Below are positions 16,558 to 31,877 of a DNA stretch of 42,037 nucleotides, one piece after another. Position numbers and translations under genes: made by a program. A model generated the notes under the pieces. It was not told the DNA's origin. It did no database searches and was given only the letters and a program-made list of their open reading frames with translations. The DNA lies in IMG/VR virus record IMGVR_UViG_2721755721_000007. One strand, given 5' to 3'. The stretch comes from a virus (taxonomy: Duplodnaviria; Heunggongvirae; Uroviricota; Caudoviricetes). Each line of letters opens with the position of its first letter. The stretch's first letter is position 1.

Positions 16558-17338
16558 TTACGCCAGTTGTACGGACACGAACGCATCAGGGTCAGCCAGC
16601 AGCATCAGCGGTGCTGACTGAATCATGGTGAACTCACGCGCCGGATCGCCGGTGGTCACCCAGTTTTTCGGGTAGCGGGCAGAGGCGTTAATACCTTCGC
16701 GCTGTGCGTCCGCATCCTGAATGCAGCCATAGGTGCGCAGACCGCGTGCCTGAGAGTTCCCCAGCACCATCGTGTTGTCCGGAAGGAAGTTCTTTTTGAC
16801 GTCGTTTTCCACGTACTGTCCGGAATACACGACGATCGCCGTATCGCCATACATCCCCTTATAGGACACCGCTTCGCCCAGGTCTTTTACCGCTGTCTCC
16901 AGCTCGGAATTAGAGCCGCGACGGGTATCCAGCTTCTCCTTGACGGCTTTGAAGGAACGGAACAGCGCCCAGCCTTTCGGATCAAACACGATGATATTCA
17001 CCACTCCGCTGGCGTTCAGCGCATAGGCTTCGATATCGTCGGTCGGGTCATACGTGGACTTGTCACGCTTGCTCCACTCCGTACCACCGGACTGTGTGAT
17101 GTTGTTCGCCGCACTGCGGCCCATATCCACCTCAACCGGATCGAAGGCTTCACCGGTCATGGTGTATTTGCCCTTAAGCACAGCAGAAACTGCCTGCATC
17201 TCTTCGACCTGAGCAATGGCCAGCTCTTCGTCTCGCATGTTCTGCATGATGATGCGACGGCGGCGGTAAGCCGGGTCCGCCAGATTCTGCGGATCTTCAT
17301 CCGGCAGGCGACGCAGGGTCATCTGCGGATTCACCTCA
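16558..17338 (-). pseudogene. E: 3' fragment of major capsid gene E (lambda gpE residues ~83-341), separated from its 5' part by the island
   Basis: Encodes (E)VNPQMTLRRLPDEDPQNLADPAYRRRRIIMQNMRDEELAIAQVEEM...FVSVQLA, matching lambda gpE from residue 83 to the end; no credible start or RBS (the tracked start is a GTG inside the E frame). Confidence 0.9.
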
Positions 17339-17348
17339 TGCTTCGGCT
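17339..17348. repeat. 10-bp att core / direct repeat TGCTTCGGCT (island right junction)
   Basis: Identical 10-mer at 31235-31244; flanking sequence differs, and E gene sequence resumes exactly at the repeat. Confidence 0.75.
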
Positions 17349-17482
17349 ACATGAGTCAAATATGAAAGGATGTGAATGATTTGATTACGTTTTAGCTATA
17401 GAATTGAAATGGAAAATCCTTGAATGCAATACAACGTGCAATACATGGATGAAAACCATCACTCATTTAACAAGAGGAATCT

Positions 17483-18388
17483 ATGCGCTCACCCAACAGA
17501 ATGCATGAACGCTCAACATTTTATAAGTATATGTCGTTGAATACCGCGAAGATTGTTCTTGATTCATGCAGCCTTAGATGGAGTTCTCCGGTCCTATTTA
17601 ATGACCCTTTTGATGTTCCAAGAGAAGTTATGCCTGGTATTAACGAAATTAATATTGGCAAAGCTTTAGCCCGCAAGTTAATAGCGGAGTTGATTACCCC
17701 CAGAGAAGACATACAAAATTTAAACCCTAGAATTAGAACAATGCTAAGTGATTTCCAAAAGTCATTTCCTTTAGGCATACCCGCAGGATTAATTGAAAGA
17801 TTTCAAGAAATGGTAAACATTCCACCAGTTGGGATTGGCGCTCCTGCGGCAATACAAGAAATGAAAGATGTCTGGCGAGGAATGCTTAATAACAGAAGGA
17901 TTTTGTGTTTATCTGAGAGCCCTATAATCACTCCTATGTGGAATCACTATGCCGATAAATATAAAGGTATAGTTATCGAATTGGATTGTGTAGACTTTCT
18001 GGATAGCGCTTGGTTAATAGCCAAACCTATGAAATACACAGATGAAATGCCTCTAACTCACACTGCTGAAGGGATGGCCGAGTTGCTTTTCATGCCAGAC
18101 AATAAGTCAATTGAATATATCAATAATGAGATAATATTCATAAAAACAGAAGAATGGGCATATGAAAGAGAGTGGAGAATTTCAACCTACGCTAGGCCAA
18201 ATAGCACTGGTCAATATAGCGACTTAAAATTTCACCCTTTTGAGTTAAAATCTGTAATACTTGGTCCTCTTTTTGATGCCAGCGAGTTCGATGAAGTCGC
18301 ATCACTAGTTAAAATGTATCCAAGAGCGAAATTATTTAAAAGTTCATTTGGGAACGACAGAAAAATATCCATAGTACCACTACCTTAA
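17483..18388 (+). CDS. DUF2971-like protein (301 aa), island cargo gene
   Basis: N-terminal motif FYKYMSLNTAKIVLDSCSLRWSSPVLFNDPFD resembles the DUF2971 signature as I recall it. Good RBS (GAGGA 7 nt upstream of ATG). AT-rich relative to neighbours. Function unknown. Confidence 0.6.
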   Translation: MRSPNRMHERSTFYKYMSLNTAKIVLDSCSLRWSSPVLFNDPFDVPREVMPGINEINIGKALARKLIAELITPREDIQNLNPRIRTMLSDFQKSFPLGIPAGLIERFQEMVNIPPVGIGAPAAIQEMKDVWRGMLNNRRILCLSESPIITPMWNHYADKYKGIVIELDCVDFLDSAWLIAKPMKYTDEMPLTHTAEGMAELLFMPDNKSIEYINNEIIFIKTEEWAYEREWRISTYARPNSTGQYSDLKFHPFELKSVILGPLFDASEFDEVASLVKMYPRAKLFKSSFGNDRKISIVPLP

Positions 18389-18418
18389 AAGGTCAAATGC
18401 TTTTGACAAATAAAATCT

Positions 18419-18445
18419 ATCGCCAGTTTTACTGGCGACTTTTAA
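18419..18445. terminator. Bidirectional intrinsic terminator between the convergent DUF2971 and terS-like genes
   Basis: Hairpin CGCCAG-tttta-CTGGCG flanked by A/T-rich runs on both strands. Confidence 0.45.
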
Positions 18446-18494
18446 GCAACAAAGAACCACCTAAGCACTCTTCCTACCTATGGTTTCATTTGTT

Positions 18495-19046
18495 TTAACT
18501 TCGCTGATTATCCTTGATATACCTTTCAGCCATATCTGGAATGTTATCTGAGATCTGGTAAGCTCGAATAAATGCTTTACTGACCTCCATCTTAATGAAG
18601 TCCTGATACCGTTTTTCCATGCCAGGAAACTGTCGACAGATCGCAAGTGGAAGACTATCAATGATTGCTCCAACTTCCCCAGTTAATTTCGACAAGGCAT
18701 AAGTCGCAAATGCAGTGTCAATTACCTCACCTGTTTCGCTGGCATTCTTCAGTTCCTGTGCGTCGGCCTGCGCACGCGTAAGTCGATGGCGTTCGTACTC
18801 AATAGTCCCTGGCTGGAGATCTGTCTCGCTGGCCTGCCGCAGTTCTTCAACTTCCCGGCGCAGCTTTTCGTTCTCAATTTCAGCATCCCTTTCGGCATAC
18901 CATCTTATAACGGCGGCAGAGTCATAAAGCACCTCATTACCCTTGCCACCGCCTCGCAGAACGGGCATTCCCTGTTCCTGCCAGTTCTGAATGGTACGGA
19001 TACTCGCACCGAAAATGTCAGCCAGCTGCTTTTTGTTGACTTCCAT
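18495..19046 (-). CDS. Island terminase small subunit, Nu1-like (183 aa): N-terminal ~100 aa near-identical to the prophage Nu1, C-terminal ~80 aa divergent
   Basis: MEVNKKQLADIFGASIRTIQNWQEQGMPVLRGGGKGNEVLYDSAAV... matches the prophage Nu1 (36879..37424) to about residue 100, then diverges but stays alignable. Confidence 0.85.
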   Translation of the reverse strand: MEVNKKQLADIFGASIRTIQNWQEQGMPVLRGGGKGNEVLYDSAAVIRWYAERDAEIENEKLRREVEELRQASETDLQPGTIEYERHRLTRAQADAQELKNASETGEVIDTAFATYALSKLTGEVGAIIDSLPLAICRQFPGMEKRYQDFIKMEVSKAFIRAYQISDNIPDMAERYIKDNQRS

Positions 19047-19267
19047 TGTTCATTCCACGGACAAAAACAGAGAAAGGAAACGACAGAGGCCAAAAAGCTC
19101 GCTTTCAGCACCTGTCGTTTCCTTTCTTTTCAGGGGGTATTTTAAATAAAAACATTAAGTTACGACGAAGAAGAACGGAAACGCCTTAAACCGGAAAATT
19201 TTCATAAATAGCGAAAATCCGCGCGCCTGACGCCCCGTAGCCTGTCAGATCGCCGGAAAGGACCCGC
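18739..19267. repeat. ~0.53 kb segment near-identical to the prophage nu1 5' half plus cosB (copy of 37117..37643)
   Basis: Aligns base-for-base with 37117..37643 apart from a few substitutions and a divergent cosN block. Confidence 0.85.
19060..19240. other. Island cos site: cosB-like Nu1-binding repeats identical to the prophage, cosN region altered
   Basis: R-site-like GGAAACG repeats as in lambda cosB. At the cosN position (19225-19236) the island reads cgcctgacgccc where the prophage reads aggtcgccgccc (5 of 12 differ). Confidence 0.7.
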
Positions 19268-19291
19268 CAGCCAGAGCGGGCCCTAATTTCA

Positions 19292-19675
19292 TCAACCAAT
19301 CAGCTTATAGCGACCATCCCGTGCATTGCGGCGTACACGCTCAATCTTGAGGCATAGCGCCGCATCTGGCTTTTTTGGGACAGGTACGCGGCAATATTCA
19401 GAAGCGCGAGGAATATTATTTATCCAGTCGATCACTTCACTTAAATACCAGGCCTTACGCCCTTCCGTAACCTGCACACGCTCCGGGAACTCTCCACTAG
19501 CCTCAAGGTTTAGCAGTGTACGCCGACTCAGGGTTGTAATTTCCATCACCTGATTCATATCAACAAGGCGCTCGCTTAAACACATTTTGTCAGCGATAGC
19601 TTTTAATTCCTCTACAGCTGGATTCGGGTACATCATTTCGGCAATTGGCTTAAGGTCATTGTAATCATTTTGCAT
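19292..19675 (-). CDS. AlpA/excisionase-like HTH DNA-binding protein (127 aa)
   Basis: C-terminal half MEITTLSRRTLLNLEASGEFPERVQVTEGRKAWYLSEVIDWI resembles the phage AlpA-family HTH. Confidence 0.55.
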   Translation of the reverse strand: MQNDYNDLKPIAEMMYPNPAVEELKAIADKMCLSERLVDMNQVMEITTLSRRTLLNLEASGEFPERVQVTEGRKAWYLSEVIDWINNIPRASEYCRVPVPKKPDAALCLKIERVRRNARDGRYKLIG

Positions 19676-19686
19676 TGTATCCCCCT

Positions 19687-20028
19687 TTACACACGAGCCA
19701 GCGGCTGAACAGAAATACCTGAGCCAACAAACGCTGCAATCTTTACTGACAGTTCTTTTACAGACTCAGGCCAGTTCAGAGCATCAACATTTAAGACACC
19801 TGTCTTATAGACCTGAGCCTGTGTTTTTTTCGCGGTGTCGATTTGTACAGCGGAAACATAAACCGCTTTACCTACGCTCGAACCATCCCATACCACCAGT
19901 GCACCTGTTGCATCTTCCTGCATCAGTGGCGTAAATGCAGGAATTACCCCTTTATTAGCTGAAAATATCCCCAGCGTAGTCACCAGTGCTTCAGTGCCAG
20001 CCATGAGTTCAGTGTAATGAGTAGCCAT
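19687..20028 (-). CDS. Head decoration protein, lambda gpD homologue (113 aa), island-encoded
   Basis: TPLMQEDATGALVVWDGSSVGKAV... aligns with lambda gp[28 protein letters not shown]; similar length. Confidence 0.7.
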   Translation of the reverse strand: MATHYTELMAGTEALVTTLGIFSANKGVIPAFTPLMQEDATGALVVWDGSSVGKAVYVSAVQIDTAKKTQAQVYKTGVLNVDALNWPESVKELSVKIAAFVGSGISVQPLARV

Positions 20029-20037
20029 TGCTCCCCC

Positions 20038-21078
20038 TTAGCCAATGCGAACGGTAACAAAACGATTGATGCGGGCCGGTATTGGCTGTGGTGCTGAATG
20101 TGTCTGCACATATTCAATAGCCGGATCACCAGGCACAATATAGTTTTTCGGTGCAAGTTCGGCTTTAGTCAGCCCCATTCGGATTAGCTCCGGATCCTGA
20201 ATACCGCCATAGGCGACAATCCCCTGAAGAGCCGTATTGCCAAGCACCATCAAATCAGGATCAAGGAAATGTTTTTCAGTTCCGTCCTCGTCGGTATAAC
20301 GCCCGCTGTAAACAACAATCGCAACATCGCCCATATATCCTTTAAAACTCACCGAATCACCAAGGTCTTTAAGGGCCGTTTCCAGTTCGGAATTAGAACC
20401 ACGACGGGTATCCAGAGCCTCTTTTATCGCTCTGAATGAACGGTATTTCTTCCATACATTACCGCCCATAATGATGATATTAGTGACGCCCTCACTAAAT
20501 TCTGCGTAGCTCTCAATATCATCATTTGGATCAAAAGTTTCTTTATCCTTACCTGACCACTCAGTACCGCCAGACTGAGTGATGATATTTTGTGGTTTAA
20601 TATTCCAGTCCAGCTCATAACGTTCAATACCATCGCCCTCAATGATATTTTTCCCCGTTGTGATTGCCTGAACGGCAAGCCATTCAATACGTGCACGAAT
20701 AGCTTTAGCTTGATTTACAATCGCCTGTTTAACTTTAATATTACGCGCCCCAAAAGCATTGTATTGCTCAGGTGATACACCAGCAGGGCGCACAGCTAAC
20801 TTATTTGGATCAATGCTGCTTTTCGGCTTCATATAGCCTGGACGAATTGTTTTTGATTCGTACCCTTCGTCACGTGAAACTTTACTACCCACCATAGGAG
20901 AACAAAACGCTGCAATTGGGATATTTGGATCGTCGATTGTATCAAGAATAATATCGCGCGATCCAAACATTACCGAGCGAGTAAAAAACAAACTGGTAAA
21001 CAACGCATTTAGTTGTTTTTGTACATCTACAGCATTAACCACCTGTACAAGCTGGGTAGGCGAATATAAATCAACCAT
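20038..21078 (-). CDS. Major capsid protein homologue, lambda gpE family (~346 aa), island-encoded
   Basis: About 50% identical to lambda gpE over the C-terminal two-thirds (ITQSGGTEWS..., DTRRGSNSELETA.KDLG, GDVAIVVYSG). Start taken at MVDLYSPTQ, with AAGAGG 6 nt upstream; the tracked ORF extends a further 71 codons. Confidence 0.85.
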   Translation of the reverse strand: MVDLYSPTQLVQVVNAVDVQKQLNALFTSLFFTRSVMFGSRDIILDTIDDPNIPIAAFCSPMVGSKVSRDEGYESKTIRPGYMKPKSSIDPNKLAVRPAGVSPEQYNAFGARNIKVKQAIVNQAKAIRARIEWLAVQAITTGKNIIEGDGIERYELDWNIKPQNIITQSGGTEWSGKDKETFDPNDDIESYAEFSEGVTNIIIMGGNVWKKYRSFRAIKEALDTRRGSNSELETALKDLGDSVSFKGYMGDVAIVVYSGRYTDEDGTEKHFLDPDLMVLGNTALQGIVAYGGIQDPELIRMGLTKAELAPKNYIVPGDPAIEYVQTHSAPQPIPARINRFVTVRIG

Positions 21079-21252
21079 ACGCATCCTCTTTGCATTCATT
21101 AAAAATAATTGTGGATATATGCTATCACCGATATTTGTCATGCGAACACATGCAACCGAGTGCAATGTTGTATAAAGTTTTGGGGTGACAACTTCAGTGC
21201 GGACAATTAGTGTTAATATCTTCACTCCCTTTGGTCGGGATTTATGTAGCAT

Positions 21253-21283
21253 GCCGGAAAATTTATTTTTTCCGGCTTTTTTT
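21253..21283 (+). terminator. Terminator-like hairpin oriented against the island late operon
   Basis: GCCGGAAAA-tttatt-TTTTCCGGC followed by TTTTTTT on the plus strand, in the SSB/capsid-homologue intergenic region. Confidence 0.4.
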
Positions 21284-21294
21284 ATTGGCAATAT

Positions 21295-21744
21295 TTAAAA
21301 CGGGATATCATCTCCCCATTGCTCATTATCTCCCTCTGGTGGCTGGCTTCCTTGCTGATCTGCCTGTTGTTTTGCTCTGTTCAGTGCGTCAGTAGCCTGC
21401 CCCTGTTGGCCTTTTTTGCCGCCCGGTCGCACCGATCGCGCACTGATTACGCTGTCTGCGATAACCTGCCAGCCCTGCCGCGTTTCGCCGTTCTGTCCAG
21501 TCCACTGGCTCATCTGCATGTTACCCGCCACGCTCAGGAGTTCGCCTTTGTGATGCTTTGCCAGCGCGTCGGCTTGTCTGCCAAACGCCAGGACAGATAA
21601 CCACAACGTCGCCAGACCGTCATCCGACTGACTGCAGGGCAGTGATACCGCCATACGCGCCAGCGTCATGGGGGTGCCCTTGCTGGTCTGTTTTGTCTGC
21701 GGGTCGTCCACCAACCGCCCGTAAACTGATATTTGCGCCGTCAT
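21295..21744 (-). CDS. ssb: Single-stranded DNA-binding protein (149 aa)
   Basis: OB-fold-like N-terminus, Gly/Gln-rich linker and the acidic C-terminal tail ...WGDDIPF typical of bacterial and phage SSB. Confidence 0.8.
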   Translation of the reverse strand: MTAQISVYGRLVDDPQTKQTSKGTPMTLARMAVSLPCSQSDDGLATLWLSVLAFGRQADALAKHHKGELLSVAGNMQMSQWTGQNGETRQGWQVIADSVISARSVRPGGKKGQQGQATDALNRAKQQADQQGSQPPEGDNEQWGDDIPF

Positions 21745-21998
21745 GCTGCCTGCTCTCCGGACTTAATATTGATTGTTGTCACTTCCTCCGCTTCAGCAAT
21801 CTCCCGTTCGGTCAGCGTGGCAAAGTTTGCAGCCGCCGTTGTCATGAATGCGCTTATCAGTTCGGGATGTGCTTTCGCGTATCCTTCCCCGGCGTTGCGG
21901 TCTATTGCCTTAATCGCCACCCTTAGCCAGTGTTCAGCCATATCAAGGGCGCGGTAATGTGGCTTTATATGTTTGTTCAGTTTTCCTGATGTGTGCAT
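21741..21998 (-). CDS. Hypothetical protein (85 aa)
   Basis: ORF tightly coupled to ssb (4-nt overlap); no recognised motif. Confidence 0.4.
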   Translation of the reverse strand: MHTSGKLNKHIKPHYRALDMAEHWLRVAIKAIDRNAGEGYAKAHPELISAFMTTAAANFATLTEREIAEAEEVTTINIKSGEQAA

Positions 21999-22039
21999 TT
22001 TTATTTTTACCCCCTCGTTTAAAAAGTTTTTTGTGCACC

Positions 22040-22277
22040 ACCACCTTGTCTACCTTGTCTACCTGATTAGTTATCAGGCCAGTAATGGCGCGGGTTTCAG
22101 GGAGGTAGACAGCCCCAAATAGCTGTCTACCTCATCTCTACCCGTCTCCTTACCTGTCTACAAAAATGGGTAGATAAGGTAGATAACAGGTAGACAGTGA
22201 AAAATAGTTATCTACCTGCATTAATACATTGAAATAAAAGTATTTTCTTTCAGTCAGGTAGACAAGGTAGATAACCA
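22040..22277. repeat. Iteron array, putative island replication origin
   Basis: At least 10 copies of an 8-bp GGTAGA(C/T)A motif in both orientations within ~240 bp, immediately 3' of the primase-helicase gene. Confidence 0.75.
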
Positions 22278-22287
22278 TTGCCATTTT

Positions 22288-24039
22288 TTATAAAAACGCA
22301 TCGCAATCATCAGTAGTCGTTGCGTTGGTCTGCGTGACTCCCTTAACTTTTCGCGTAATATATTCATATCCGTAAACTTTCGCCGCTGACCTCATAGCCT
22401 TTCCGAACTCATTCACGCTCAAACATTTCCCCTTTCCTGTGTATGCCATGAAGGCCATATAGACACGGTAAAGGCTGTTTCTGGTCGTGTACTTCACGGT
22501 GTCACCACCACCGCCCATCATTAGCCCACGAGCTTCCTCCAGAAACTCCAGCGCCGCGCAAAGCTCAACAACCGGATCCGTTTGCTGCTTTATTGCCAGA
22601 GCTTCATCACCGTCACGCTGTTCCAGTAATAAAGCCCGTGCCTTTTCAGGGGCAGCAAAATTAGCCAGCAAGCGGCGGATAATTACGGGGATTTCTGCCG
22701 CTATCTTTTCCGGTAATTCCTTGTCTTTTTCGTCCTCCCTTACAATGTTGTCGAACCGGAAAATCACCCGACGGCGTGACACACCTCCGGCCCGTTCGGT
22801 AAAGATCATCGGGTCGTTATTGGTTGCCAGTACCACCGCCCTTATTATCGTCGTGAATCGCTTCTCATATTTCGGGTTAATTTCAACGGGATCGCCTCCC
22901 GTGATTTTCTTGATGCCCGTGCCTTCCCCCGTATATTTCGGCTGATCGGCAAGGACGATAAGACGACTCCCGACAACCTGCGCGCGCCCTCCTGCATCAT
23001 CGAGTGATGTCATCTCCGCGCTTACGGTGTTCTGTTTGCCAGCAAGCAGGGTGGCAATATGGGTAAATGTACTCTTACCGCTTCCCCCGTCTCCGGTGGC
23101 CTCAATGAACATCTGCCAGTCGTAGCGGTTCGCCATAATCATGTATAACGCGGCACATATACGCATCATCTTACGCGGGTCTTTTCTTGCAGCATGTTCA
23201 AGCCATTTATGGAAATTTGGCGCATTATCGCGGATGTTTTCCCCTGCTACTGGTGGCGTGTACTCAATGCCATTGTGCGTGGTGCTCCAGTGCTCCGGCG
23301 AGTGCGGAGAAAATTCCCCCGTTTTCAGGTTAAGCACACCATTAGTGAACGGTAGCAAATCACCGGACGGCTCCCCCATGGGGTCGGCAATAACTTTTAA
23401 CGCTTCCACGGCGTTATTGATTACACGTTTGCTGAACGTGGCCCTGTGCTCTGAATAGATCGCCACCATTTCGCGGCTCAGCTCCATTGTGCTGACCGGA
23501 CACCATACCCCGCCGCGCCATACGTGGACGATTTCACTTTCTGCATGAACACACACACCATCAAAGCGATCGGCAAGTAGTTGTGCACGTTCACTGTCTG
23601 CCATCTGTGAAAGTTGCGCCTTTTGCTTCGTCGGAAGATTAAGCACCAGACTTTCCCCACGCTCGCATTCCTCTTTGAGTCGCGGCAACTGCTCGGATAA
23701 ATCCACTGGGCTGGTGTCAGTAATCCCCGCGTATTCGTGTACGGTCTTCACTCCAGCCACAGCCAGTAACGTAACAATCTGCGTCATGCTGTGCTCTGTG
23801 ATATGTCCTGCGCGGTAAACACGCACACACTGACGATCTTCATCAATGATCCGGTAATCGGTGATATTTTTCAGTTGCTCATCAGCCAGCACGACAGGCG
23901 GCACATCGTCGGCGGCAATATGTTTACCCGCCCATTCCCGCCACTCTTTCGCATGGCTCCACGCATCACTACCTGCAAAGATGATTACCTCTGTCAGTCT
24001 GTCGCGTGGCTGTTTTTTTAAGTTCGGTGCCAGTTTCAT
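22288..24039 (-). CDS. Primase-helicase (P4/D5-like, SF3 helicase domain), 583 aa
   Basis: Walker A GDGGSGKST and layout typical of the P4-family primase C-terminal domain; positioned as a PICI pri-rep gene next to the iterons. Confidence 0.8.
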   Translation of the reverse strand: MKLAPNLKKQPRDRLTEVIIFAGSDAWSHAKEWREWAGKHIAADDVPPVVLADEQLKNITDYRIIDEDRQCVRVYRAGHITEHSMTQIVTLLAVAGVKTVHEYAGITDTSPVDLSEQLPRLKEECERGESLVLNLPTKQKAQLSQMADSERAQLLADRFDGVCVHAESEIVHVWRGGVWCPVSTMELSREMVAIYSEHRATFSKRVINNAVEALKVIADPMGEPSGDLLPFTNGVLNLKTGEFSPHSPEHWSTTHNGIEYTPPVAGENIRDNAPNFHKWLEHAARKDPRKMMRICAALYMIMANRYDWQMFIEATGDGGSGKSTFTHIATLLAGKQNTVSAEMTSLDDAGGRAQVVGSRLIVLADQPKYTGEGTGIKKITGGDPVEINPKYEKRFTTIIRAVVLATNNDPMIFTERAGGVSRRRVIFRFDNIVREDEKDKELPEKIAAEIPVIIRRLLANFAAPEKARALLLEQRDGDEALAIKQQTDPVVELCAALEFLEEARGLMMGGGGDTVKYTTRNSLYRVYMAFMAYTGKGKCLSVNEFGKAMRSAAKVYGYEYITRKVKGVTQTNATTTDDCDAFL

Positions 24040-24335
24040 TTTTTGCCCCTGAATGCGTTAATCATGCTTTTCATTTTCTGGATGTTTCCCCGCGCTTTTT
24101 CCCTGCTGATGGGCTTACTGCGGGGTGCGGCATATACCAGGGAAAAATCACGCCGGAACTGATAAACAGGCATCACGCAGTCATAGCTATACCCCTCACG
24201 GCGGTAAGTGATGCGCCGTTCTGCCACGCCTTTAATCGTTACTGTGCCGCCGTATTTATCGCGGTAAATATCGCCGTTCATAAATTCAGGCCGAGCGGGG
24301 CCGCTGGCAATAAAGCCAGAATTTTTCATTTCCAT
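24036..24335 (-). CDS. Hypothetical protein (99 aa), translationally coupled to the primase
   Basis: ATGA overlap with the downstream primase start; no recognised motif. Confidence 0.45.
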   Translation of the reverse strand: MEMKNSGFIASGPARPEFMNGDIYRDKYGGTVTIKGVAERRITYRREGYSYDCVMPVYQFRRDFSLVYAAPRSKPISREKARGNIQKMKSMINAFRGKK

Positions 24336-24352
24336 ATTATTTATTCCTCGAC

Positions 24353-24574
24353 TTAACTCGACTTATTTGATAGCAGGGCACTATTTATTGCGTCATTGAG
24401 TTTTTCTGCTGATTCATCAATAAGTGACAACAGGCCATAAGCAATATTTGCATCTTCATTGTCATTTATGCAATCAAGCCACATATTTAATATTGCTTTT
24501 GCTGAATTATTTAAAGTTAATGAACTTTCTGCACATGCTAACAATTTAAAAAAGACTTCCCGTTCTGTATTCAT
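24353..24574 (-). CDS. Hypothetical small protein (73 aa)
   Basis: Part of a head-to-tail run of small ORFs in the island early operon; AT-rich. Confidence 0.35.
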   Translation of the reverse strand: MNTEREVFFKLLACAESSLTLNNSAKAILNMWLDCINDNEDANIAYGLLSLIDESAEKLNDAINSALLSNKSS

Positions 24575-24766
24575 TTAATCCCCCACCAGCTTACTTTCTT
24601 CCTCAATCAGGAAACTAGCGACACTTCCCGAAAGGCGCGCCAGTAGGCTCGCCAGCGCGGATATATCAGCATCTGTAATTTTGTTCGGGTATACCTCAAG
24701 AAGGCGGCAAATAATTTCTGTCTGGTGCGCACGTTCAGCGGCTTCGTGTAATGTGATTTCCTGCAT
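24575..24766 (-). CDS. Hypothetical small protein (63 aa)
   Basis: Tightly packed ORF in the same operon. Confidence 0.35.
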   Translation of the reverse strand: MQEITLHEAAERAHQTEIICRLLEVYPNKITDADISALASLLARLSGSVASFLIEEESKLVGD

Positions 24767-24951
24767 TAATGCACCTCTTTTAATTCATACACTGCTGAAA
24801 TAATGACTTGTGATAAGCCATATTCTGATGATTCGCTTCTCACCGCAGCAATAGCCGTCTGAACATTAACAGCCTTCACGTTCTGAGTGATACCAATTGT
24901 GTGGCCCAGTGGGTTAACAGCTCGGGCAAATACACGGAAGGTTTTAAGCAC
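24766..24951 (-). CDS. Hypothetical small protein (61 aa)
   Basis: Tightly packed ORF in the same operon. Confidence 0.35.
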   Translation of the reverse strand: MLKTFRVFARAVNPLGHTIGITQNVKAVNVQTAIAAVRSESSEYGLSQVIISAVYELKEVH

Positions 24952-25207
24952 GGCACACCTCCTGACGAATACGGGCGGCGAATATCATCACGTAGCCAGT
25001 TGGGGATTGCTGGCGGGCTTCCTGTTCGCTGGCGGCCTCGATGTGTATTACGCGTGGTTGTGCGGTGCTCAGGGCGATAAAACGCCAGATGTATTTATTC
25101 AGGTTGTGCGAATCCCGCCCTTGCGGGTGTGTGGTATGATTTCTCATAGCTACCTCGATACTGTTGCTATCGTTGGTGGTTAGACGCCCTGTATGTGTTG
25201 CGAGCAC
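24944..25207 (-). CDS. Hypothetical small protein (up to 87 aa; start uncertain)
   Basis: First ORF of the leftward operon, divergent from the RHH gene; an internal Met (MRNHTTHPQ...) is a possible alternative start. Confidence 0.35.
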   Translation of the reverse strand: MLATHTGRLTTNDSNSIEVAMRNHTTHPQGRDSHNLNKYIWRFIALSTAQPRVIHIEAASEQEARQQSPTGYVMIFAARIRQEVCRA

Positions 25208-25244
25208 TGCAGGGCGTTGTTATATAGCAATAAAACATGATAAG

Positions 25245-25286
25245 GTGTGTACCTATCAAGAATCATACTAAGCAATAGGTACACAC
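25245..25286. promoter_or_regulatory. Perfect 12-bp inverted repeat (GTGTGTACCTAT-N18-ATAGGTACACAC) abutting the RHH start codon; putative operator
   Basis: Read directly; arms at 25245-25256 and 25275-25286, lying in the divergent intergenic region between the early operon and the RHH gene. Confidence 0.55.
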
Positions 25287-25481
25287 ATGTCAACTATCAT
25301 TCAACGTGATAAACAACCGAAAGGTGCAGGTAAAGCACCAGCATTCCAAGTCCGTATTAACCCAGAATTAAAAGAACAAATGGTTAATGTCGCTGCCAAA
25401 GAAGGGATGAGCTTAGGTAACTGGCTAAAAGAACTGGCTCGTGCCGAACTAATAAAACAAGGAATAACACCTAAAGGCTGA
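25287..25481 (+). CDS. Small ribbon-helix-helix (CopG/Arc-like) DNA-binding protein, 64 aa
   Basis: Predicted beta-strand FQVRINPELKEQM followed by helices VNVAAKEGMSLGNWLKELARAEL; typical RHH layout. Confidence 0.6.
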   Translation: MSTIIQRDKQPKGAGKAPAFQVRINPELKEQMVNVAAKEGMSLGNWLKELARAELIKQGITPKG

Positions 25482-25504
25482 TAATTTGCATAAAGGATTC
25501 TTCT

Positions 25505-26854
25505 ATGACAACAAGTCACAAAATGCTAGAAATCAGTAAAGAACAATTTGATGTATTTTTCTATGGTCGTACACCATACGTAAAAACCTTTTCGGAGGAA
25601 ATCTGTTGGTTCAAATTTATAAAGGATGATGTCACGATCTTAGCAACAATTGTTTTTTGTAAAATAGATAATGATTACAACGCTATATTTCTAGGTAGGG
25701 ATTTAGATAAAAAATTTAGAGCGATTAAAGTAATTGTATCCCGTGAATCTAAAGATGATTTAATTACTGATATGGAAAAAGCCATACCAGAGCTATTATC
25801 ACTACACAAGAACGGTTGTTTTATACAGGGTGACGAATCAGAGTCGGCATTTTCAATATTCCTAGCCAAAGTTCCAGAACATAAAAAAAACGTTTATCTA
25901 AGAATGCTACTTGAGGAACCCAAACACTATCCTGCATTTATTGTTATGCAAGAGTTAGCTTATTGGTGTAAAGATCCTGATGGAATATTCATCAGAGATT
26001 TCCAGAGTGCTTCATTTAACTCTCGCTTATTCGAACTTTATCTAAACGCAGTTTTCTACGAAATGGATTTCGTAATATGCAGAGATTATGCTCAACCTGA
26101 TTATATTATCTCAAAAAATGGCATTGATATTGCTGTAGAAGCTGCCACAGTTGCAGAACAAGAGGAACCTACCGAGAAATTGATACTTGATCATGAGGCA
26201 GTAGAAGATCTTCAGAGATATGTAAAAGAACAAATGCCATTCAAATTTGCCCGCACTCTATTAAAGAAAGTTAGGCATAAACCTGAACCCTTAAAATTAT
26301 GCTATTGGGAACTAGATCATACAAAAGGAAAGCCTTTCATTATTGCTTTACACGATTACTCACGCAGATTTTCGATGAGTATATCAATGCCAGCACTACA
26401 AAGCTATCTGTATGGTGTAGATATGGATTCTGGAAGTAAAATTGAACAACATTTATTTGAAAATCGAAGTATACAATCTAATTTTTTCGGCTCTAATAAA
26501 AATGAGAATGTCTCAGCCATATTACTTGCGACACATGCCACCATCCCAAAATTTGATAGGATGGGAGTAGTGGCAGGGATTGAACAAAAAAATGTCAAAT
26601 CCATCGTTAGAGGTATTAAAACTGATGAAGGCTGTACCCCAATGCCTTTTACTGCTCTTGTCAATGCACCTTCATATCAAGAACCATGGTGTACAGCAAT
26701 ATACATGTTTCATAATCCGAAGGCATTAAATCCTATACGCCCTGAATTATTCCCAAGAGTTATTCATATTTTTGAAGAAGATGGAGAAATAGTTCAATAC
26801 TTACCACCTAATTATATAATCTCATCAACTACGCACGTATTTGAATTTAAGTGA
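25505..26854 (+). CDS. Orphan protein of unknown function (449 aa), co-oriented with and 24 bp downstream of the RHH gene
   Basis: Long uninterrupted ORF in a markedly AT-rich segment; no Walker A, HEPN, or other motif I can recognise. Confidence 0.6.
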   Translation: MTTSHKMLEISKEQFDVFFYGRTPYVKTFSEEICWFKFIKDDVTILATIVFCKIDNDYNAIFLGRDLDKKFRAIKVIVSRESKDDLITDMEKAIPELLSLHKNGCFIQGDESESAFSIFLAKVPEHKKNVYLRMLLEEPKHYPAFIVMQELAYWCKDPDGIFIRDFQSASFNSRLFELYLNAVFYEMDFVICRDYAQPDYIISKNGIDIAVEAATVAEQEEPTEKLILDHEAVEDLQRYVKEQMPFKFARTLLKKVRHKPEPLKLCYWELDHTKGKPFIIALHDYSRRFSMSISMPALQSYLYGVDMDSGSKIEQHLFENRSIQSNFFGSNKNENVSAILLATHATIPKFDRMGVVAGIEQKNVKSIVRGIKTDEGCTPMPFTALVNAPSYQEPWCTAIYMFHNPKALNPIRPELFPRVIHIFEEDGEIVQYLPPNYIISSTTHVFEFK

Positions 26855-26905
26855 TTTCAAATCCTATGGGTTTACCCCATAGGATTACATCCACTGTCTA
26901 AATTC

Positions 26906-27127
26906 TTACCACTCTCCCCTAATCCATGCCTGCACTTCTGAAAGACGATATGCAACAGCAGTGGAACCAATCTTGATCCGCTTAGGAAATTTTCCTTCCT
27001 TCTCCAGCTTCCAGCGTGTGCTGTTCGCAAGAGTGGTTAGCTCCCGACATTCTTTCTCACGGATCATACGATCGATATTAGGAATGTACTCCAGACCCTT
27101 TTTATCGACAATTGCCATTTTTTTCAT
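26906..27127 (-). CDS. alpA: AlpA-family transcriptional regulator (73 aa)
   Basis: MKKMAIVDKKGLEYIPNIDRMIREKECRELTTLANSTRWKLEKEGKFPKRIKIGSTAVAYRLSEVQAWI is a typical AlpA HTH. Confidence 0.8.
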   Translation of the reverse strand: MKKMAIVDKKGLEYIPNIDRMIREKECRELTTLANSTRWKLEKEGKFPKRIKIGSTAVAYRLSEVQAWIRGEW

Positions 27128-27176
27128 GTTAACCAGCCTTTTGTTTGTAAGCGACTCGTCAGAACCGTATTGATAT

Positions 27177-28748
27177 TTACTGAGAGCTCAGATCAACTTT
27201 CCAGGGCAACAGATCGCGTACCCGGTTTGCCGGCCAGTCCTGGATATGTTCAATGACGTAACGCAGCCACTTTTCTGGCTCCACATTGTTCAGACGGCAT
27301 GTGCCGATCAGCGAGTACAACACCGCCGCATGTTCACCACCGCTGTCGGAACCCGCGAACATCCAGTTTTTCCGGCCTACGGCCACTCCCCGTAAGGCGT
27401 TCTCTGCGATGTTGTTGTCGATTTCCACCCAGCCATTACTGCAGTACACGTTCAGTGCATCCCACTGTTTCAGCAGGTATGCGAACGCTTTTGCCGTATC
27501 TGAGTGACGCGACAGTGTTTTCATCTGTTGCTGTATCCAGTCATACAGTGACTGCATCAGTGGCGCGGCTCTGGCTTTTCTTGCCGCCAGACGCTGTTCT
27601 GCTGAACAGCCCCGGACCTCTGCCTCGATGGCATACAGTTCACCGATACGCTGCAGGGCTTCCGTGGTGATGTAGGTGGGCGCTCTTGCATGCACATCGT
27701 GGATTTTTCTCCGGGCATGAGCCATACACGCGGCTTCCGTTATTCTGCCGGATTCGTATAACGCCCGGTAACCACCGTAAGCATCGGCCTGAAGCACACC
27801 GCTGTAACCGGCCAGGTGATTTTGTGGATGGATACCTTTCCGGTCCGGACTGTACGCGAACCAGACCGCCGGGGGCATCTGTGAACCGGCGTTACGGTCA
27901 TCACGGACGTAGACCCACAGCCGGGCTGTCCGGGTTTTACCGCTGCCCGGCTCCTGGACCGGGACGGGGATATCATCAGCATGGACTTTACCGGGCATCA
28001 GCACATACTGGCGCAGGACGTCATACAGCGGCTCCAGCAGTTCAGCAACAGCACCTGTCCAGCGCCCCAGTGTGGCACGGCTCAGCTCCACTCCCTGACG
28101 ACGGTATATTTCTGACTGGCGGTATAACGGCAGATGGTCTGCATATTTCCCGGTGACAACATGGGCCAGAAGCCCCGCTCCGGCATAACTGCGTGCAATG
28201 GGTTTTGAAGGTACTGGTGCCTGCACGATATGGTCGCACCGGCAACAGGCCTGTTTCGGACGTTGTGTTTCGATAACCTTAAAGGCGCTGCTGATAAGCT
28301 CCAGTTGCTCTGACACATCACATCCCAGAGAACTGAGTTCACCACCACAGGCAGGACAGCATTCCTCTTCCGGCCGGATAACCCGGGTTTCACGGGGAAG
28401 TGAGGCCGGTAACGGTTTACGGGCTGAAGACTGGCGCAGGGCGGATGGCAGTACCGGGTCATATTGCTCACCCAGCGTTTCCGCCATTTCTTCCTGAAGT
28501 GCGCTGATTCGCTCCTGTGCTTCCTGTATCTGCCGTTCGGTTTTTGCACGAAGTTTTTCTGAGCTTTTACCGAACTGCATACGTTGCAGTTTCGCAACCA
28601 GCGCCTTCAGCCGGTTGATTTCGGAAGCATAAGCCGCCACCCGCTGTGAGAGCAGGCGGTTGTATTCAGCCATCTGGCGGATGGTGTCCTGTTGCGTCTG
28701 CAACAGTGCCCGCAGGCGGGCGTTCTCATGAGCAAGTGAGGTGTCCAT
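27177..28748 (-). CDS. IS66-family transposase TnpC (523 aa)
   Basis: Leucine-zipper-like N-terminus, CxxC...CxxC zinc-finger region and DDE core typical of IS66 TnpC. Confidence 0.85.
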
Positions 28749-28767
28749 ATCCTCACTTTACAACGGG

Positions 28768-29115
28768 TTATATGCGGATTCCAGCGCGTTCCGTTCGTTT
28801 CGGGTGCTTCCAGTTGATACCTTCAAGAAGCATGGATAACTGAGCCGGAGTAAGGTGCACCTTGCCGTCACGGGTGACTGGCCAGACGAAGCGGCCCCGC
28901 TCCAGGCGTTTGGTGAAGAGGCACAGTCCGTCACTGTCAGCCCACAACACTTTTATCTGGTCACCCCGGCGTCCGCGGAAGATGAACAGGTGTCCGGAGA
29001 ACGGGTCATCCTTCAGGACGTTCTGAACTTTTGATGCCAGGCCGTTAAAGCCATTTCGCATATCGGTGATACCTGCAACCAGCCAGATACGCGAACCTGC
29101 AGGGAGAGATATCAT
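28768..29115 (-). CDS. IS66-family TnpB (115 aa)
   Basis: MISLPAGSRIWLVAGITDMRNGFNGLASKVQ...HLFIFRGRRGD is the conserved IS66 Orf2. Confidence 0.85.
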   Translation of the reverse strand: MISLPAGSRIWLVAGITDMRNGFNGLASKVQNVLKDDPFSGHLFIFRGRRGDQIKVLWADSDGLCLFTKRLERGRFVWPVTRDGKVHLTPAQLSMLLEGINWKHPKRTERAGIRI

Positions 29116-29792
29116 CAGTGGCTGCTCCCTTTTATTTCGCGGATAAGTGTCTGTAATAACGCCGGCGTCAGTTTACCTTTAAGCCTGAGAGTTCCGGCCG
29201 GCAGAACCAGCTCACAACACAGACTGTCGGACGGTGTATTTATCTGCTCTGGTTCCTGTGCGGGGGCCGGGATTTTATTATCCGGCTCCGGCGTTAACGT
29301 CACGGGAAGCAGTGCCGGCATATTTTTTCCGGAAGGCAGCAGGCCACCTTTCCGGTATTGATGGCGCCAGTTGAAGAGCAGGTTATCGTTGATTCCGTTT
29401 TCCCGGGCGATCTGCGCCACACAGGCTCCGGGCTGTAGTGACTGCTCCACTAAGGCGATTTTAAACTCATAAGGGAAGTTGGGCCGCCGGGGACGTTTTT
29501 TTACCACGGGGGCTTCGGATATAACGGTGCTTTCAGGACGTACGACTGGTACCGTGGAAAATTGTCCGTAAAGGCAGGCATCAAGTTCCTGCTCCGACAT
29601 GCCTGCGGGCAAAGGCCACGAAAGGCCAGCTCTCCGAAAGCGCACGAACATACTACAAACTGTTGATTTTGGTACACTCAGGCGACGCCCGGCCACAACC
29701 CGGGGTAAATGTTCTTCAAAGTGAAGACGTAAAGCTTCAGTGATCCAGGTCCGGTGTTTCATACGATAGTGTCCATTAAAAATGATGGACAT
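29115..29792 (-). CDS. IS66-family TnpA/Orf1-like HTH protein (start uncertain; tracked ORF 225 aa)
   Basis: Contains the HTH motif PGACVAQIARENGINDNLLFNWRHQYRKGG typical of IS66 Orf1; the long N-terminal extension may not all be translated. Confidence 0.6.
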   Translation of the reverse strand: MSIIFNGHYRMKHRTWITEALRLHFEEHLPRVVAGRRLSVPKSTVCSMFVRFRRAGLSWPLPAGMSEQELDACLYGQFSTVPVVRPESTVISEAPVVKKRPRRPNFPYEFKIALVEQSLQPGACVAQIARENGINDNLLFNWRHQYRKGGLLPSGKNMPALLPVTLTPEPDNKIPAPAQEPEQINTPSDSLCCELVLPAGTLRLKGKLTPALLQTLIREIKGSSH

Positions 29793-31072
29793 TATTTTTG
29801 TAGAGCCGGAGGAAACAGACCAGACGGTTTAAATGAGCCGGTTACCTTTTGTTTGAGGATTGTCACTTTTGAATCAGCACCTGCGATGCTATTGAGATAT
29901 GTAGTCCAGAGTTCCAGAGCATCCAGTTTTTTAGCCATAAACTTACTCCGGTTGTAAACACCTGCCACGCCAGGTAGCGCATGGCCTAACAGTTGTTCTA
30001 CTACATAAAATTCAACACCGAGATCACTTAGATGAGTAGATAGCGTTCTTCTAAGGTCGTGTAGTGACCATTGTTTTTCATGGCCCAAACGTTTACCGAT
30101 TTTCCCCCCAATCTTGCTTACGCTTTCTCTAATTCGCAGACTTCCCAGCACATAACCAGTATGTTTTGTCTCTTCGTGAACATCCGTTACCCACTGTCGT
30201 AGAATTTCAGGTACTGGTCTGACGATTTCAACACCAGTTTTTGAGTGATCTTTTGGTACAGTCCAAACCCAACTTTCGAGATCCCATTCGCTCCATTCTG
30301 ATAATCGGGCTTCACTCATTCGACATCCAAATACTGTACAAAGCACAAACATTTTTCGCGTGTATTCAGACATTAGTTTTAAATCAGGCTCGACAAAAAT
30401 TGCCTTCCAGAGCTGGCCGAGTTCGGCTTCATCCAGAACCCGATCCCGCTTACCTGCAATCTGCCCCACATCACTCATGCGCAAATCCTTTAAAGCATCA
30501 CACGTCGCGTACTGGCGTACCCGACAAAAACGAAGAGCTAATTTAGTGTCAGAAAAAACATACGCCGCCATAACTGGTGCATTACGTTTAATTCGGTCAA
30601 AACAGTCCAGCCATTCATATAGGTGAGTGTCATTTACGGGCAAATGACCGATATAGGGAAAGATATGCTTTCGAAATCTGCCAAGCGTTACAGCATGAGT
30701 TTTACGACGCACCTTACAGTAATTTTCATACCAGTAATTTAGTGCATCCTCCACTGTGACCGGCTTTAAGCGTTCTTCAGCCTGAATCTTAATCTGGATA
30801 CGCGGATCACGTTTGTCAGCCAACCAACCACGGCACTCGTCGCGCTTTTCCCTTGCCTGTTTGAGTGACATATCAGGATATTTACCCAACGTTAGCCAGA
30901 CCGGAGCAGCCCGGCCACCTGCTAACCTGTAGAAGAAAACAAAGCTCACAGCCCCTTTAGTACTCACACGAATAGAAAGCCCCTTTCCATCAGCAATGGT
31001 GATCTGCTTTTCTCTGGGTTTCCCCAGATATCCTTTAAGCGCTTTGTCGCTCAGTTTGTTCTCGCCAGCCAT
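29792..31072 (-). CDS. int: P4-type tyrosine integrase; native 3' end interrupted by the IS66 at ~29846
   Basis: H-x-x-R box (HDLRRT), LLGH and a conserved Tyr in GVYNR near the C-terminus. Start taken at MAGENKLSDK. The reading frame runs into the IS, adding ~18 foreign codons. Confidence 0.85.
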   Translation of the reverse strand: MAGENKLSDKALKGYLGKPREKQITIADGKGLSIRVSTKGAVSFVFFYRLAGGRAAPVWLTLGKYPDMSLKQAREKRDECRGWLADKRDPRIQIKIQAEERLKPVTVEDALNYWYENYCKVRRKTHAVTLGRFRKHIFPYIGHLPVNDTHLYEWLDCFDRIKRNAPVMAAYVFSDTKLALRFCRVRQYATCDALKDLRMSDVGQIAGKRDRVLDEAELGQLWKAIFVEPDLKLMSEYTRKMFVLCTVFGCRMSEARLSEWSEWDLESWVWTVPKDHSKTGVEIVRPVPEILRQWVTDVHEETKHTGYVLGSLRIRESVSKIGGKIGKRLGHEKQWSLHDLRRTLSTHLSDLGVEFYVVEQLLGHALPGVAGVYNRSKFMAKKLDALELWTTYLNSIAGADSKVTILKQKVTGSFKPSGLFPPALQK

Positions 31073-31868: not shown

Positions 31869-31877
31869 AAACATCCC

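Follow-up and report, generated by a model that had tools for sequence, protein, structure and literature searches.

An SF3 helicase-initiator and a P4-like iteron origin in the putative replication zone of a satellite embedded in a lambdoid prophage

The satellite in the capsid gene

The stretch of DNA analysed here (the window; 42,037 nucleotides, IMG/VR virus record IMGVR_UViG_2721755721_000007) contains a lambdoid prophage whose capsid gene E is split by a large insertion. Tail and head genes flank this insertion on the same strand, and its int, alpA and rep genes all lie on the minus strand. Apart from the origin, the relevant features are as follows.

17339..31245, minus strand: whole satellite, 13.9 kb, putative helper-embedded PICI in capsid gene E
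31205..31507: split E fragment, Phage_cap_E positions 1-78 (Pfam)
16558..17334: split E fragment, Phage_cap_E positions 94-328 (Pfam)
17339-17348 and 31236-31245: att identity block, 10 bp, TGCTTCGGCT
27148-29844: IS66-family insertion, 2.7 kb, at the int/alpA junction just upstream of alpA
24036..24335, minus strand: DUF4222 gene (Pfam DUF4222, 9e-24), its stop overlapping the Rep start by 4 bp
22288..24039, minus strand: Rep ('Pri-Rep'), 583 aa, P4-alpha-family initiator and SF3 helicase (Pfam, TIGR01613, PDB 7OLA, EcCICFT073)
23665..24039, minus strand: N-terminal domain of Rep, aa 1-125, compact alpha/beta, hypervariable between alleles, no recognisable primase motifs
22306..22581, minus strand: C-terminal winged-helix origin-binding domain of Rep, aa 487-578 (phmmer to 1KA8)
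21741..21998, minus strand: orf85, 85 aa, between origin and ssb (PHROG 1231, function unknown, 3e-48)
21295..21744, minus strand: satellite SSB, 149 aa: OB fold over aa 4-99, then a linker rich in Gln and Gly, with GDDIPF as the tail
18736-19267: copy of the helper cos/Nu1 region

The att site was placed from the identity block together with Pfam coordinates, and joining the sequence at this block yields a 1053-nt in-frame ORF for a lambda-like E protein. Between the att copies, the satellite encodes int, alpA, the Rep-ori module and SSB, plus homologues of capsid, decoration and Nu1 genes; its cargo consists of PD-T7-1, a DUF2971 protein and the captured helper cos/Nu1 segment. The integrase is a tyrosine recombinase that carries an Arm-DNA-bind_3 domain, and the DNA around its gene is 97.6% identical to an element of E. 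coli EC4, which is of the same kind and occupies the identical site. A blastn search of the window with the helper E gene of CFT073 returned no match. An Rfam search detected no P4 CI/isrK-type RNA in the element, the sole match being IS009 at 44-242.

The organisation of helper-embedded PICIs and the site class E:Phage_cap_E:80 have been published, with 201 such elements catalogued at the same capsid-gene site (Tommasini, Mageeney and Williams 2023, PMC10111431). Judged by its site, att block and zones, the satellite belongs to this class, with insertion at about codon 80. Like Eco567.11capE (PMC10111431), it is a co-oriented insertion into a lambda E cognate near codon 80, has a 10-bp att block and is divided into four zones: int/alpA, a variable zone, replication (Primase/DUF5906 and SSB), and a late zone that carries its own capsid gene. 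It differs from the published helper-embedded PICIs in its own cargo and in the IS66-family insertion at int/alpA. The latter parts alpA from its upstream sequence, changes the last int codons and may keep the rep operon from being induced.

The proposal of an earlier note on this DNA, that the insertion is a phage satellite equipped with an initiator and origin of its own, is borne out by the restoration of E at the att block, by the int, alpA and SSB genes, and by synteny with the PICI EcCICFT073. In 33 E. coli genomes, the module is present with at least 99% identity; of 5426 complete genomes, 345 carry at least 80% of it.

Initiator, iteron array and adjoining genes

Rep matches the Pfam families D5_N (1.3e-15), DUF5906 (SF3 P-loop, 6e-10) and, at its C-terminal end, Pox_D5 (6e-4). 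Its score against TIGR01613 is 102.6 bits, below the cut-off of 108.7, and this match is restricted to the helicase part (aa 229-469). It also matches PDB 7OLA (DNA primase, 4e-15), which we take to be the structure of SaPI5 PriRep5. The motifs GDGGSGKS (Walker A, at 316), LIVLAD (360), TNN (406) and RRR (422) are present, and the catalytic motifs are invariant among 31 homologues. A D5_N domain is thus combined with an SF3 helicase in which Walker A and B, motif C and the arginine finger are intact, as expected for the P4 alpha type. The C-terminal domain resembles PDB 1KA8, the C-terminal fragment of P4 alpha that contains the origin-binding domain (phmmer E 2.2e-7). The full-length AF2 model of Rep was poor (pLDDT 52); the N-terminal domain alone was usable and was remodelled separately.

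At least ten copies of GGTAGA(C/T)A in both orientations had been claimed for the region beside rep. The whole window contains exactly ten exact copies of GGTAGAYA, six on the plus and four on the minus strand, and every one of them lies within 22047-22273. In 100 dinucleotide-preserving shuffles of the entire 42 kb, the expectation was 1.15 copies per window with a maximum of five, and none of the shuffles reached ten, which rules out a chance origin of the repeats. Two further iterons with one mismatch each (22135-22142 and 22155-22162) belong to the array. Since an A directly precedes nine of the ten exact copies, the true unit is taken to be AGGTAGAYA. The rep stop codon is followed after 14 bp by the array, whose reported position immediately 3' of the helicase gene is therefore correct on the coding (minus) strand. 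It can be divided into two units.

22169..22273, minus strand: origin unit A, with P4 ori layout when read on the coding strand
22257-22273, minus strand: unit A, two tandem iterons
22217-22256, minus strand: unit A, 40-bp spacer, 77.5% A+T, predicted melting site
22209-22216, minus strand: unit A, single inverted iteron, followed by a 12-bp spacer
22169-22196, minus strand: unit A, three tandem iterons
22047..22162, minus strand: origin unit B, mirrored, crr-like
22155-22162 and 22135-22142, minus strand: unit B, the two degenerate iterons
22124-22131 and 22104-22111, minus strand: unit B, inverted iteron pair with a 12-bp spacer
22064-22103, minus strand: unit B, 40-bp spacer, 50% A+T
22047-22063, minus strand: unit B, two tandem iterons

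The order and spacings of unit A match the annotated type-1 repeats of P4 ori (NC_001609 9310-9413). As in a PICI origin, two tandem iterons on one side and one plus three on the other enclose the A+T-rich 40-bp spacer. By sequence comparison, the layout as a whole is that of P4 ori with a crr-like unit after it. The iterons and the spacer block of unit B, CGCCATTACTGGC, are invariant across the window, EcCICFT073 and the Shigella relative, whereas the bases around them differ.

No DnaA box (TTATNCACA, up to one mismatch) was found at 22000-22300, GATC sites or clusters are absent from the origin, and its only IHF-like site is weak, with one mismatch. Iteron plasmids of the DnaA-dependent RepA/pi type have DnaA boxes beside their iterons and a WH1-WH2 Rep without a helicase; the window differs on both counts, its initiator being an SF3 helicase. 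A scan of the array region for sigma-70-like promoters and for terminators detected neither, which is neutral with regard to a regulatory function of the repeats.

Upstream of rep, the DUF4222 gene occupies the same position as in EcCICFT073 (72% identity) and, in further E. coli genomes, also adjoins initiators of other types; these comparisons identify it as a conserved upstream partner of the initiator. On the other side of the array, orf85 shares 78% identity with its positional counterpart in EcCICFT073 and also occurs in Shigella L003. It shares a 4-bp ATGA overlap with ssb, which suggests translational coupling. The SSB matches Pfam SSB over aa 4-99 (2e-15), TIGR00621 with 67 bits (cut-off 54) and SSB structures in the PDB (best 4e-11). 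With its OB fold and the C-terminus EQWGDDIPF, which supplies the D-D-I-P-F tip, it belongs to the SSB family. The earlier description of an SSB with a canonical DDIPF tail therefore stands as to identity and tail but not as to position: the gene lies outside 22040-24039, and orf85 separates it from the array.

Related replication modules

The closest characterised relative is EcCICFT073, the model gram-negative PICI (PMC6092414). It shares the gene order DUF4222, Rep, origin, orf85 and SSB, followed by capsid E-like and decoration D-like genes. Its Rep is 80% identical over the full length (583 versus 584 aa), its 289-bp origin lies immediately 3' of rep with the same iteron, GGTAGAYA, and the same iteron layout, and its SSB (68.5% identity) also ends in GDDIPF. 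The differences concern the N-terminal 150 aa of Rep, which are only 38-60% identical, the origin spacers, which have diverged (about 75% identity over 300 bp), and the SSB linker, the lengths of which differ by 13 aa. In addition, PerC and a further ORF separate ssb from the capsid gene in EcCICFT073, which sits beside phoQ on the chromosome, whereas the window satellite lies inside a prophage gene. EcCICFT073's pri-rep-ori segment drives plasmid replication; deletion of rep or ori abolishes or reduces it, with loss of the intergenic ori region reducing it (PMC6092414, Fig. 2b; Fillol-Salom et al. 2018).

The comparative set was small, consisting of five relatives and P4; a search of genome contigs with the Rep protein gave three loci. 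In all five relatives, the array is found at the same place and reads two tandem iterons, 35-40 bp, one inverted iteron, 11-14 bp, three tandem iterons and then more iterons, with a second tandem pair last. Their iterons are not the same octamer:

Shigella: 77% identity, iteron GGTAGAYA
Serratia: 51% identity, iteron GTGAACAG
Morganella: 51% identity, iteron ATGAACAS
LR881103: 41% identity, iteron GGTGAACA
P4: iteron GGTGAACA

The identity of the C-terminal domain of Rep groups these proteins by iteron type and not by similarity of the helicase core. Between the window Rep and the TGAACA group, the C-terminal domain is 30-34% identical, while the core is 58-60% identical to two members. This covariation and the homology to 1KA8 suggest that the C-terminal domain of Rep recognises the octamer iterons.

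The likeness to P4 extends over protein and origin. P4 alpha has the same D5_N and SF3 core (44% identity in the core) and the 1KA8-like C-terminal winged helix. Its iterons are also octamers, and unit A has the exact P4 ori layout (two iterons, 35-40 bp of A+T-rich sequence, one inverted, 12-14 bp, three). Unit B resembles one crr repeat, and the array, like crr, lies just 3' of the initiator gene. However, P4 alpha possesses a zinc ribbon and a Toprim domain, neither of which occurs in the window Rep, and the iteron is GGTGAACA in P4 but GGTAGAYA here. Whereas the window joins its ori-like and crr-like units into a single 230-bp locus, about 4.7 kb separates the two in P4, which has no SSB gene, unlike the window satellite.

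The Rep/PriRep proteins of the SaPIs (Qiao et al. 2022, PMC9371898) likewise have an SF3 helicase and a C-terminal winged helix that reads iterons immediately downstream of rep, and in SaPI origins, too, iteron sets flank an A+T-rich centre. The likeness of these Reps nevertheless stops at the helicase core, where identity is about 25%. SaPI iterons measure 5-6 bp as opposed to octamers, and the SaPIs, which are elements of gram-positive bacteria, combine Rep with a primase that is either separate or fused.

Proposed replication of the satellite and the possible source of its primase

The region is very probably the replication zone of a gram-negative PICI, represented here by a helper-embedded copy inside a lambdoid prophage's major capsid gene E. 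By homology and comparison with related elements, induction would lead to expression of the unidirectional operon running from int and alpA to DUF4222 and rep, and Rep, as an SF3 protein of the P4 alpha family, would bind the AGGTAGAYA iterons via its C-terminal winged helix. Rep oligomers on both iteron sets may then melt 22217-22256 without a separate loader, the helicase loading itself as in SaPI Reps and P4 alpha. The unwound strands would be coated by the satellite SSB, the DDIPF tail of which may provide a link to host Pol III and primase. This tail is the motif by which E. coli SSB binds its replisome partners; the roles assigned here to the SSB tail and to DnaG are drawn from general knowledge of E. 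coli. Priming would most likely be performed by host DnaG, because the zinc-ribbon and Toprim domains that P4 alpha has are missing from Rep. As long as it is embedded in the prophage, the satellite would also be copied passively by helper replication, and its autonomous replication is suggested by homology.

In Eco567.11capE, the sole helper-embedded PICI tested, the composite replicates before the satellite excises; once it had excised, two of three replicates gave an attP:attB ratio of about 1, indicating weak or undetectable replication, and the third a ratio of 1.6-1.9 (PMC10111431). Because of the two ratios near 1, autonomous replication may be weak in the helper-embedded subclass. Both these ratios and the pre-excision replication would fit a module that is intact but minor in this context, with copying mainly passive along with the helper prophage. 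The copy described here would be especially prone to this, as its IS66-family element at 27148-29844 cuts off alpA and alters the C-terminus of int. We nevertheless regard this as rather unlikely: every ORF of the module is intact, many genomes carry copies that match the module at 99.9% identity, the catalytic motifs of Rep and the iterons are conserved, the third replicate of Eco567.11capE exceeded unity, and the module of the close relative EcCICFT073 is functional. It is far less probable still that the repeats are no origin at all but are used by another protein (e.g., AlpA, orf85 or terminase) as operator, partition or packaging sites. A regulatory role for some copies is conceivable, as the array lies just upstream of the orf85, ssb and capsid genes. 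Yet the iteron sequence co-varies with the C-terminal domain of Rep, the layout is that of P4 ori, the origin is free of DnaA boxes and GATC sites, and removal of the equivalent intergenic region of EcCICFT073 reduces replication. A packaging site was rejected, since that signal lies elsewhere, in the cos/Nu1 copy at 18736-19267.

The earlier term "P4/D5-type primase-helicase" holds for the helicase, the C-terminal origin-binding domain and the origin layout but not for the primase half. Because the zinc ribbon and Toprim of P4 alpha are missing in Rep, the label is unproven. Database names likewise point to a genuinely bifunctional enzyme like P4 alpha, for which host primase would be unneeded, but such an enzyme appears doubtful. 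The TIGR01613 match is below cut-off and covers only the helicase part. Zn_Ribbon_Prim and Toprim_3 (Pfam), found in P4 alpha and the Morganella homologue, are absent even at E ≤ 1 from the window Rep, the EcCICFT073 Pri-Rep and the Serratia and LR881103 proteins, all of which are about 200 aa shorter than the P4 alpha/Morganella form. The EGYATA motif is a mark of P4-type primases; in a MAFFT alignment, A22 of Rep stands in place of the Glu in the AEGYATA stretch of P4 alpha, and a conserved DxD motif is absent after the third strand. The stretch VIIFAGSDAW, which MAFFT suggested as a degenerate EGYATA Toprim motif, was rejected as such when profile-profile comparison of the Rep N-terminus with the P4 primase region proved not significant (E 0.47), leaving a weak fold resemblance. 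A Foldseek search against viral structures gave one marginal match to an uncharacterised protein as well as weak Toprim or primase matches.

There is also a tentative reading to which we give somewhat less than an even chance. The short-form Rep lineage, including the EcCICFT073 "Pri-Rep", would have lost its primase, and its N-terminus would be a dead Toprim-like remnant turned adaptor (e.g., for a host or helper factor). The primase would be borrowed, with DnaG the likeliest candidate, possibly via the DDIPF tail of SSB, and the PICI origin would be a fusion of P4 ori and crr units.

The element class (helper-embedded PICI) and the module (gram-negative PICI pri-rep-ori) have already been published, and the discovery value is small, as functional tests exist for a homologue with 80% identity and identical iterons. 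In annotation, the block of about 14 kb that splits the prophage capsid gene is to be listed as a satellite and not as prophage cargo, and its origin and probable melting site are fixed to the base. The name "DNA primase" across this protein family goes back to the helicase part only. Researchers on satellite replication may be interested in an origin layout that P4 ori and crr also have, and in the absence of the primase domains. If true, the fusion of the two P4 units would contradict the published claim that this origin organisation is common to no other known replicon.

Layout of the satellite and its helper prophage

The lambda-like prophage occupies the minus strand, with tail genes up to ~16555, head genes at 31536-37424 and lysis genes at ~39000-40000. 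Near the left window end, beside the side-tail-fibre region, an Rfam match to the IS009 sRNA lies at 44-242 (-) (230 bits; gathering score 117). Gene E, for the major capsid protein, is in two pieces: an N-terminal one (31205..31507; Pfam Phage_cap_E positions 1-78) and a C-terminal one (16558..17334; positions 94-328). A 10-bp identity block, TGCTTCGGCT, is found at 17339-17348 and 31236-31245, and a junction made at this block restores a 1053-nt in-frame ORF for a lambda-like E protein. Between the two blocks lie the satellite genes, in the order of the minus strand.

Genes of the satellite
29792..31123, tyrosine integrase
27148-29844, IS66-family element
26906..27127, alpA
25505..26854 (+), PD-T7-1 defence gene, cargo slot
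Icd-like gene and three small ORFs, between the cargo slot and DUF4222
DUF4222, then Rep, iteron array, orf85 and SSB as one consecutive block
22288..24039 (-), Rep, 583 aa; Pfam D5_N, DUF5906 (SF3 P-loop), C-terminal Pox_D5
21741..21998 (-), orf85, 85 aa, downstream of the array
21295..21744 (-), SSB, 149 aa; Pfam SSB 2e-15, TIGR00621 above cut-off, C-terminal end GDDIPF
within 20038..21291, capsid E homologue
19687..20028, decoration-protein D homologue
19292..19675, second AlpA-like gene
18495..19046, Nu1-like small terminase
17483..18388 (+), DUF2971 gene

This organisation is that of the helper-embedded PICIs (HE-PICIs) of Tommasini, Mageeney and Williams (2023; PMC10111431), whose model is Eco567.11capE. 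Published features of the class are an att identity block of 10 bp and four zones (integration; variable; replication, with "Primase, SSB and DUF5906"; late), and 201 instances are catalogued at the site named E:Phage_cap_E:80. The E gene of a prophage in E. coli EC4 harbours an element at the same site, its integrase adjoining the N-terminal E fragment. Its core is 98.8% identical to window 19060-25207 and 99.9% identical over 21200-24400.

The cargo gene 25505..26854 (+) encodes an anti-phage defence protein, PD-T7-1, of full length (449 aa; PADLOC PDLC04073, E 1e-153), and a HicB-like 64-aa ORF (25287..25481) lies just upstream; the EC4 element carries SWIM and DUF2971 genes in this slot instead. 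The window's own DUF2971 protein has a PADLOC match to PDC-S31, a candidate defence family (3e-31); its gene fills the second of the variable cargo slots, which is at the attR end. The helper cos/Nu1-5' region is duplicated in the satellite (532 bp, 97.4% identity; 18495-19267 (-) and 37114-37645), which makes the Nu1-like small terminase a chimera: its N-terminus is like that of the helper protein, its C-terminus is not. The copied segment probably serves the satellite as packaging signal, a case of late-gene capture.

Iteron array and its relatives

All 10 exact GGTAGAYA copies of the 42,037-bp window, in both orientations, fall within 22047-22273. Dinucleotide-preserving shuffles of the whole window gave a mean of 1.15 copies and never attained 10, which bears out the dense array of at least 10 GGTAGA(C/T)A copies described in an earlier note. 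Its placement immediately 3' of the helicase gene is likewise confirmed, the first iteron following the Rep stop codon after 14 bp on the minus strand. Two further iterons have one mismatch (22135-22142 and 22155-22162), and an A directly precedes 9 of the 10 exact copies. The first spacer (22217-22256) is 77.5% A+T and the second (22064-22103) 50%; neither DnaA boxes nor GATC sites were found in the origin.

The closest experimental counterpart is EcCICFT073, the model gram-negative PICI (E. coli CFT073, NC_004431, ~1377930-1388654). Both elements share the gene order DUF4222, Rep, origin, orf85, SSB and, further along, capsid E-like and D-like genes. Identity is 80% for Rep (584 aa in EcCICFT073, annotated "DNA primase family protein"), 78% for orf85, 72% for DUF4222 and 68.5% for SSB, which also ends in GDDIPF. 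The 289-bp intergenic origin region of EcCICFT073 carries GGTAGAYA iterons in identical order. In a three-way alignment with a Shigella copy, the iterons are invariant and many spacer positions have diverged. With the EcCICFT073 rep-ori segment, a temperature-sensitive plasmid persists at the restrictive temperature; deletion of rep or ori abolishes or reduces plasmid maintenance (Fillol-Salom et al. 2018, PMC6092414). The cloning experiment proposed in the earlier note has thus already been done on a close homologue. By homology, that note's main interpretation of the inserted element as a self-replicating satellite is upheld.

The sequences downstream of Rep homologues were compared for six sequences, including the window.

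Octamers downstream of Rep homologues, with Rep identity to the window
Shigella flexneri: 77%; GGTAGAYA
Serratia aquatilis: 51%; GTGAACAG
Morganella morganii: 51%; ATGAACAS
"phage vB_KppS-Ant", LR881103: 41%; GGTGAACA
P4 (NC_001609, annotated type-1 repeats): 44% (core); GGTGAACA

In all relatives compared, the array directly follows the stop codon, and the octamer varies within a common layout. Read along the coding strand, this layout begins with two tandem iterons, a gap of 35-40 bp, a single inverted iteron, a gap of 11-14 bp and three tandem iterons; after more iterons and a spacer of ~36-60 bp, the array ends with two tandem iterons of opposite orientation. The first unit has the iteron order, orientations and spacings annotated for P4 ori (NC_001609 9310-9413: 2 / 35 / 1 / 14 / 3). 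The second resembles one 120-bp crr repeat of P4, and the whole array has the position of crr, directly 3' of the initiator gene.

Identity in the C-terminal, putative origin-binding domain sorts the Rep homologues by iteron type. Within this domain, identity among the four TGAACA-type proteins is 45-50%, and the window Rep is only 30-34% identical to them; in the helicase core, it reaches 58-60% with the Serratia and Morganella proteins and 44-45% with P4 or LR881103. Such a grouping is suggestive rather than statistical at n=6, but it is the pattern that would be expected of an initiator with cognate iterons.

LR881103.1 ("Escherichia phage vB_KppS-Ant", 16.5 kb), deposited as a phage, combines int and a short-form Rep, whose GGTGAACA origin is of P4 type, with genes for capsid, portal, connector and terminase; the tail module is absent except for one gene annotated as tape-measure protein. 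It looks like a capsid-forming PICI-type satellite.

Rep and the replication module

The label of P4/D5-type primase-helicase given to Rep in the earlier note is right for its helicase half. The helicase motifs are intact (GDGGSGKS at 316, LIVLAD at 360, TNN at 406, RRR at 422) and invariant among 31 homologues, and aa 487-578 match the origin-binding winged-helix domain of P4 alpha (PDB 1KA8, E 2.2e-7). The primase half is not supported. Pfam finds Zn_Ribbon_Prim and Toprim_3 in the long forms, P4 alpha (777 aa) and the Morganella homologue (794 aa), and neither, even at E<=1, in the window Rep, EcCICFT073 Pri-Rep or the Serratia and LR881103 proteins. Aligned with the long forms, the window Rep and other 583-588-aa forms lack ~200 N-terminal residues, and the TIGR01613 match is restricted to aa 229-469, below the family cut-off. 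The AEGYATA motif has, in the older literature, a role in P4-type primases. In a MAFFT alignment, the near-invariant A22 of Rep aligns with the Glu of AEGYATA in P4 alpha, and no conserved DxD motif follows this region. Aa 1-150 (23590-24039, -) are the most variable part, with 38-60% identity to EcCICFT073 against 82-100% for the remainder, and this domain is mosaic and hypervariable in E. coli, clustering of 120 homologues at 92% giving 19 variants. On balance, these comparisons favour a loss of primase activity in the short-form lineage. The N-terminal domain would then be a Toprim-like remnant at most, and the replicon would depend on the host for priming.

An SSB with a DDIPF tail had also been placed behind the array; protein and tail are present, but outside 22040-24039, the span assigned to the module, and orf85 intervenes. 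The orf85 product (PHROG 1231) has no known domain. The gene is conserved between origin and ssb, is translationally coupled to ssb, and occurs both in EcCICFT073 and in a Shigella element without SSB.

The DDIPF tail of E. coli SSB contacts the replisome. Homology and comparison support a scheme in which the C-terminal winged helix of Rep would bind iterons on both sides of the A+T-rich spacer, the segment serving as origin. By analogy with SaPI Reps (PMC9371898) and P4 alpha, melting at 22217-22256 may proceed without a loader, the SF3 hexamers loading themselves. The satellite SSB would coat the unwound strands, and its tail may touch the host replisome. An embedded satellite is also copied passively with its helper, and little further replication followed excision in two of three replicates (Tommasini et al., PMC10111431).

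Distribution and the copy in this prophage

At least 80% of 21295-24335 is found in 345 of 5426 complete E. coli genomes, 33 of which carry it at >=99% identity. The 301-bp origin is >=99% identical in 76 genomes, and a ~75%-identical allele, the level of the EcCICFT073 origin, occurs in ~330 more. In other E. coli genomes, the place of Rep between DUF4222 and orf85/SSB is taken by "helicase RepA family" or "DUF927" initiators. This agrees with published allelic variation of the initiator among E. coli PICIs, and suggests that an initiator and its origin are swapped as a cassette between conserved flanks. The class of element, the module and its function are known from the literature; new here are only the base-level origin anatomy, its match to P4 ori plus a crr-like unit, and the lack of primase domains in "Pri-Rep".

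The replication module of this copy is itself intact. The IS66-family element (an HTH transposase ORF, an IS66 Orf2-like TnpB and an IS66 DDE transposase), bordered by CCTTTTGTTTG on both sides, sits at the int/alpA junction. It replaces the last two int codons with 19 others, changing the Int C-terminus from KQKAG (stop) to KQKVTGSFKPSGLFPPALQK (stop). Lying 10-20 bp upstream of the alpA start codon, it separates alpA from its upstream sequence. The insertion could block induction of the rep operon, in which case the satellite would be trapped at its site and capsid gene E would stay split.
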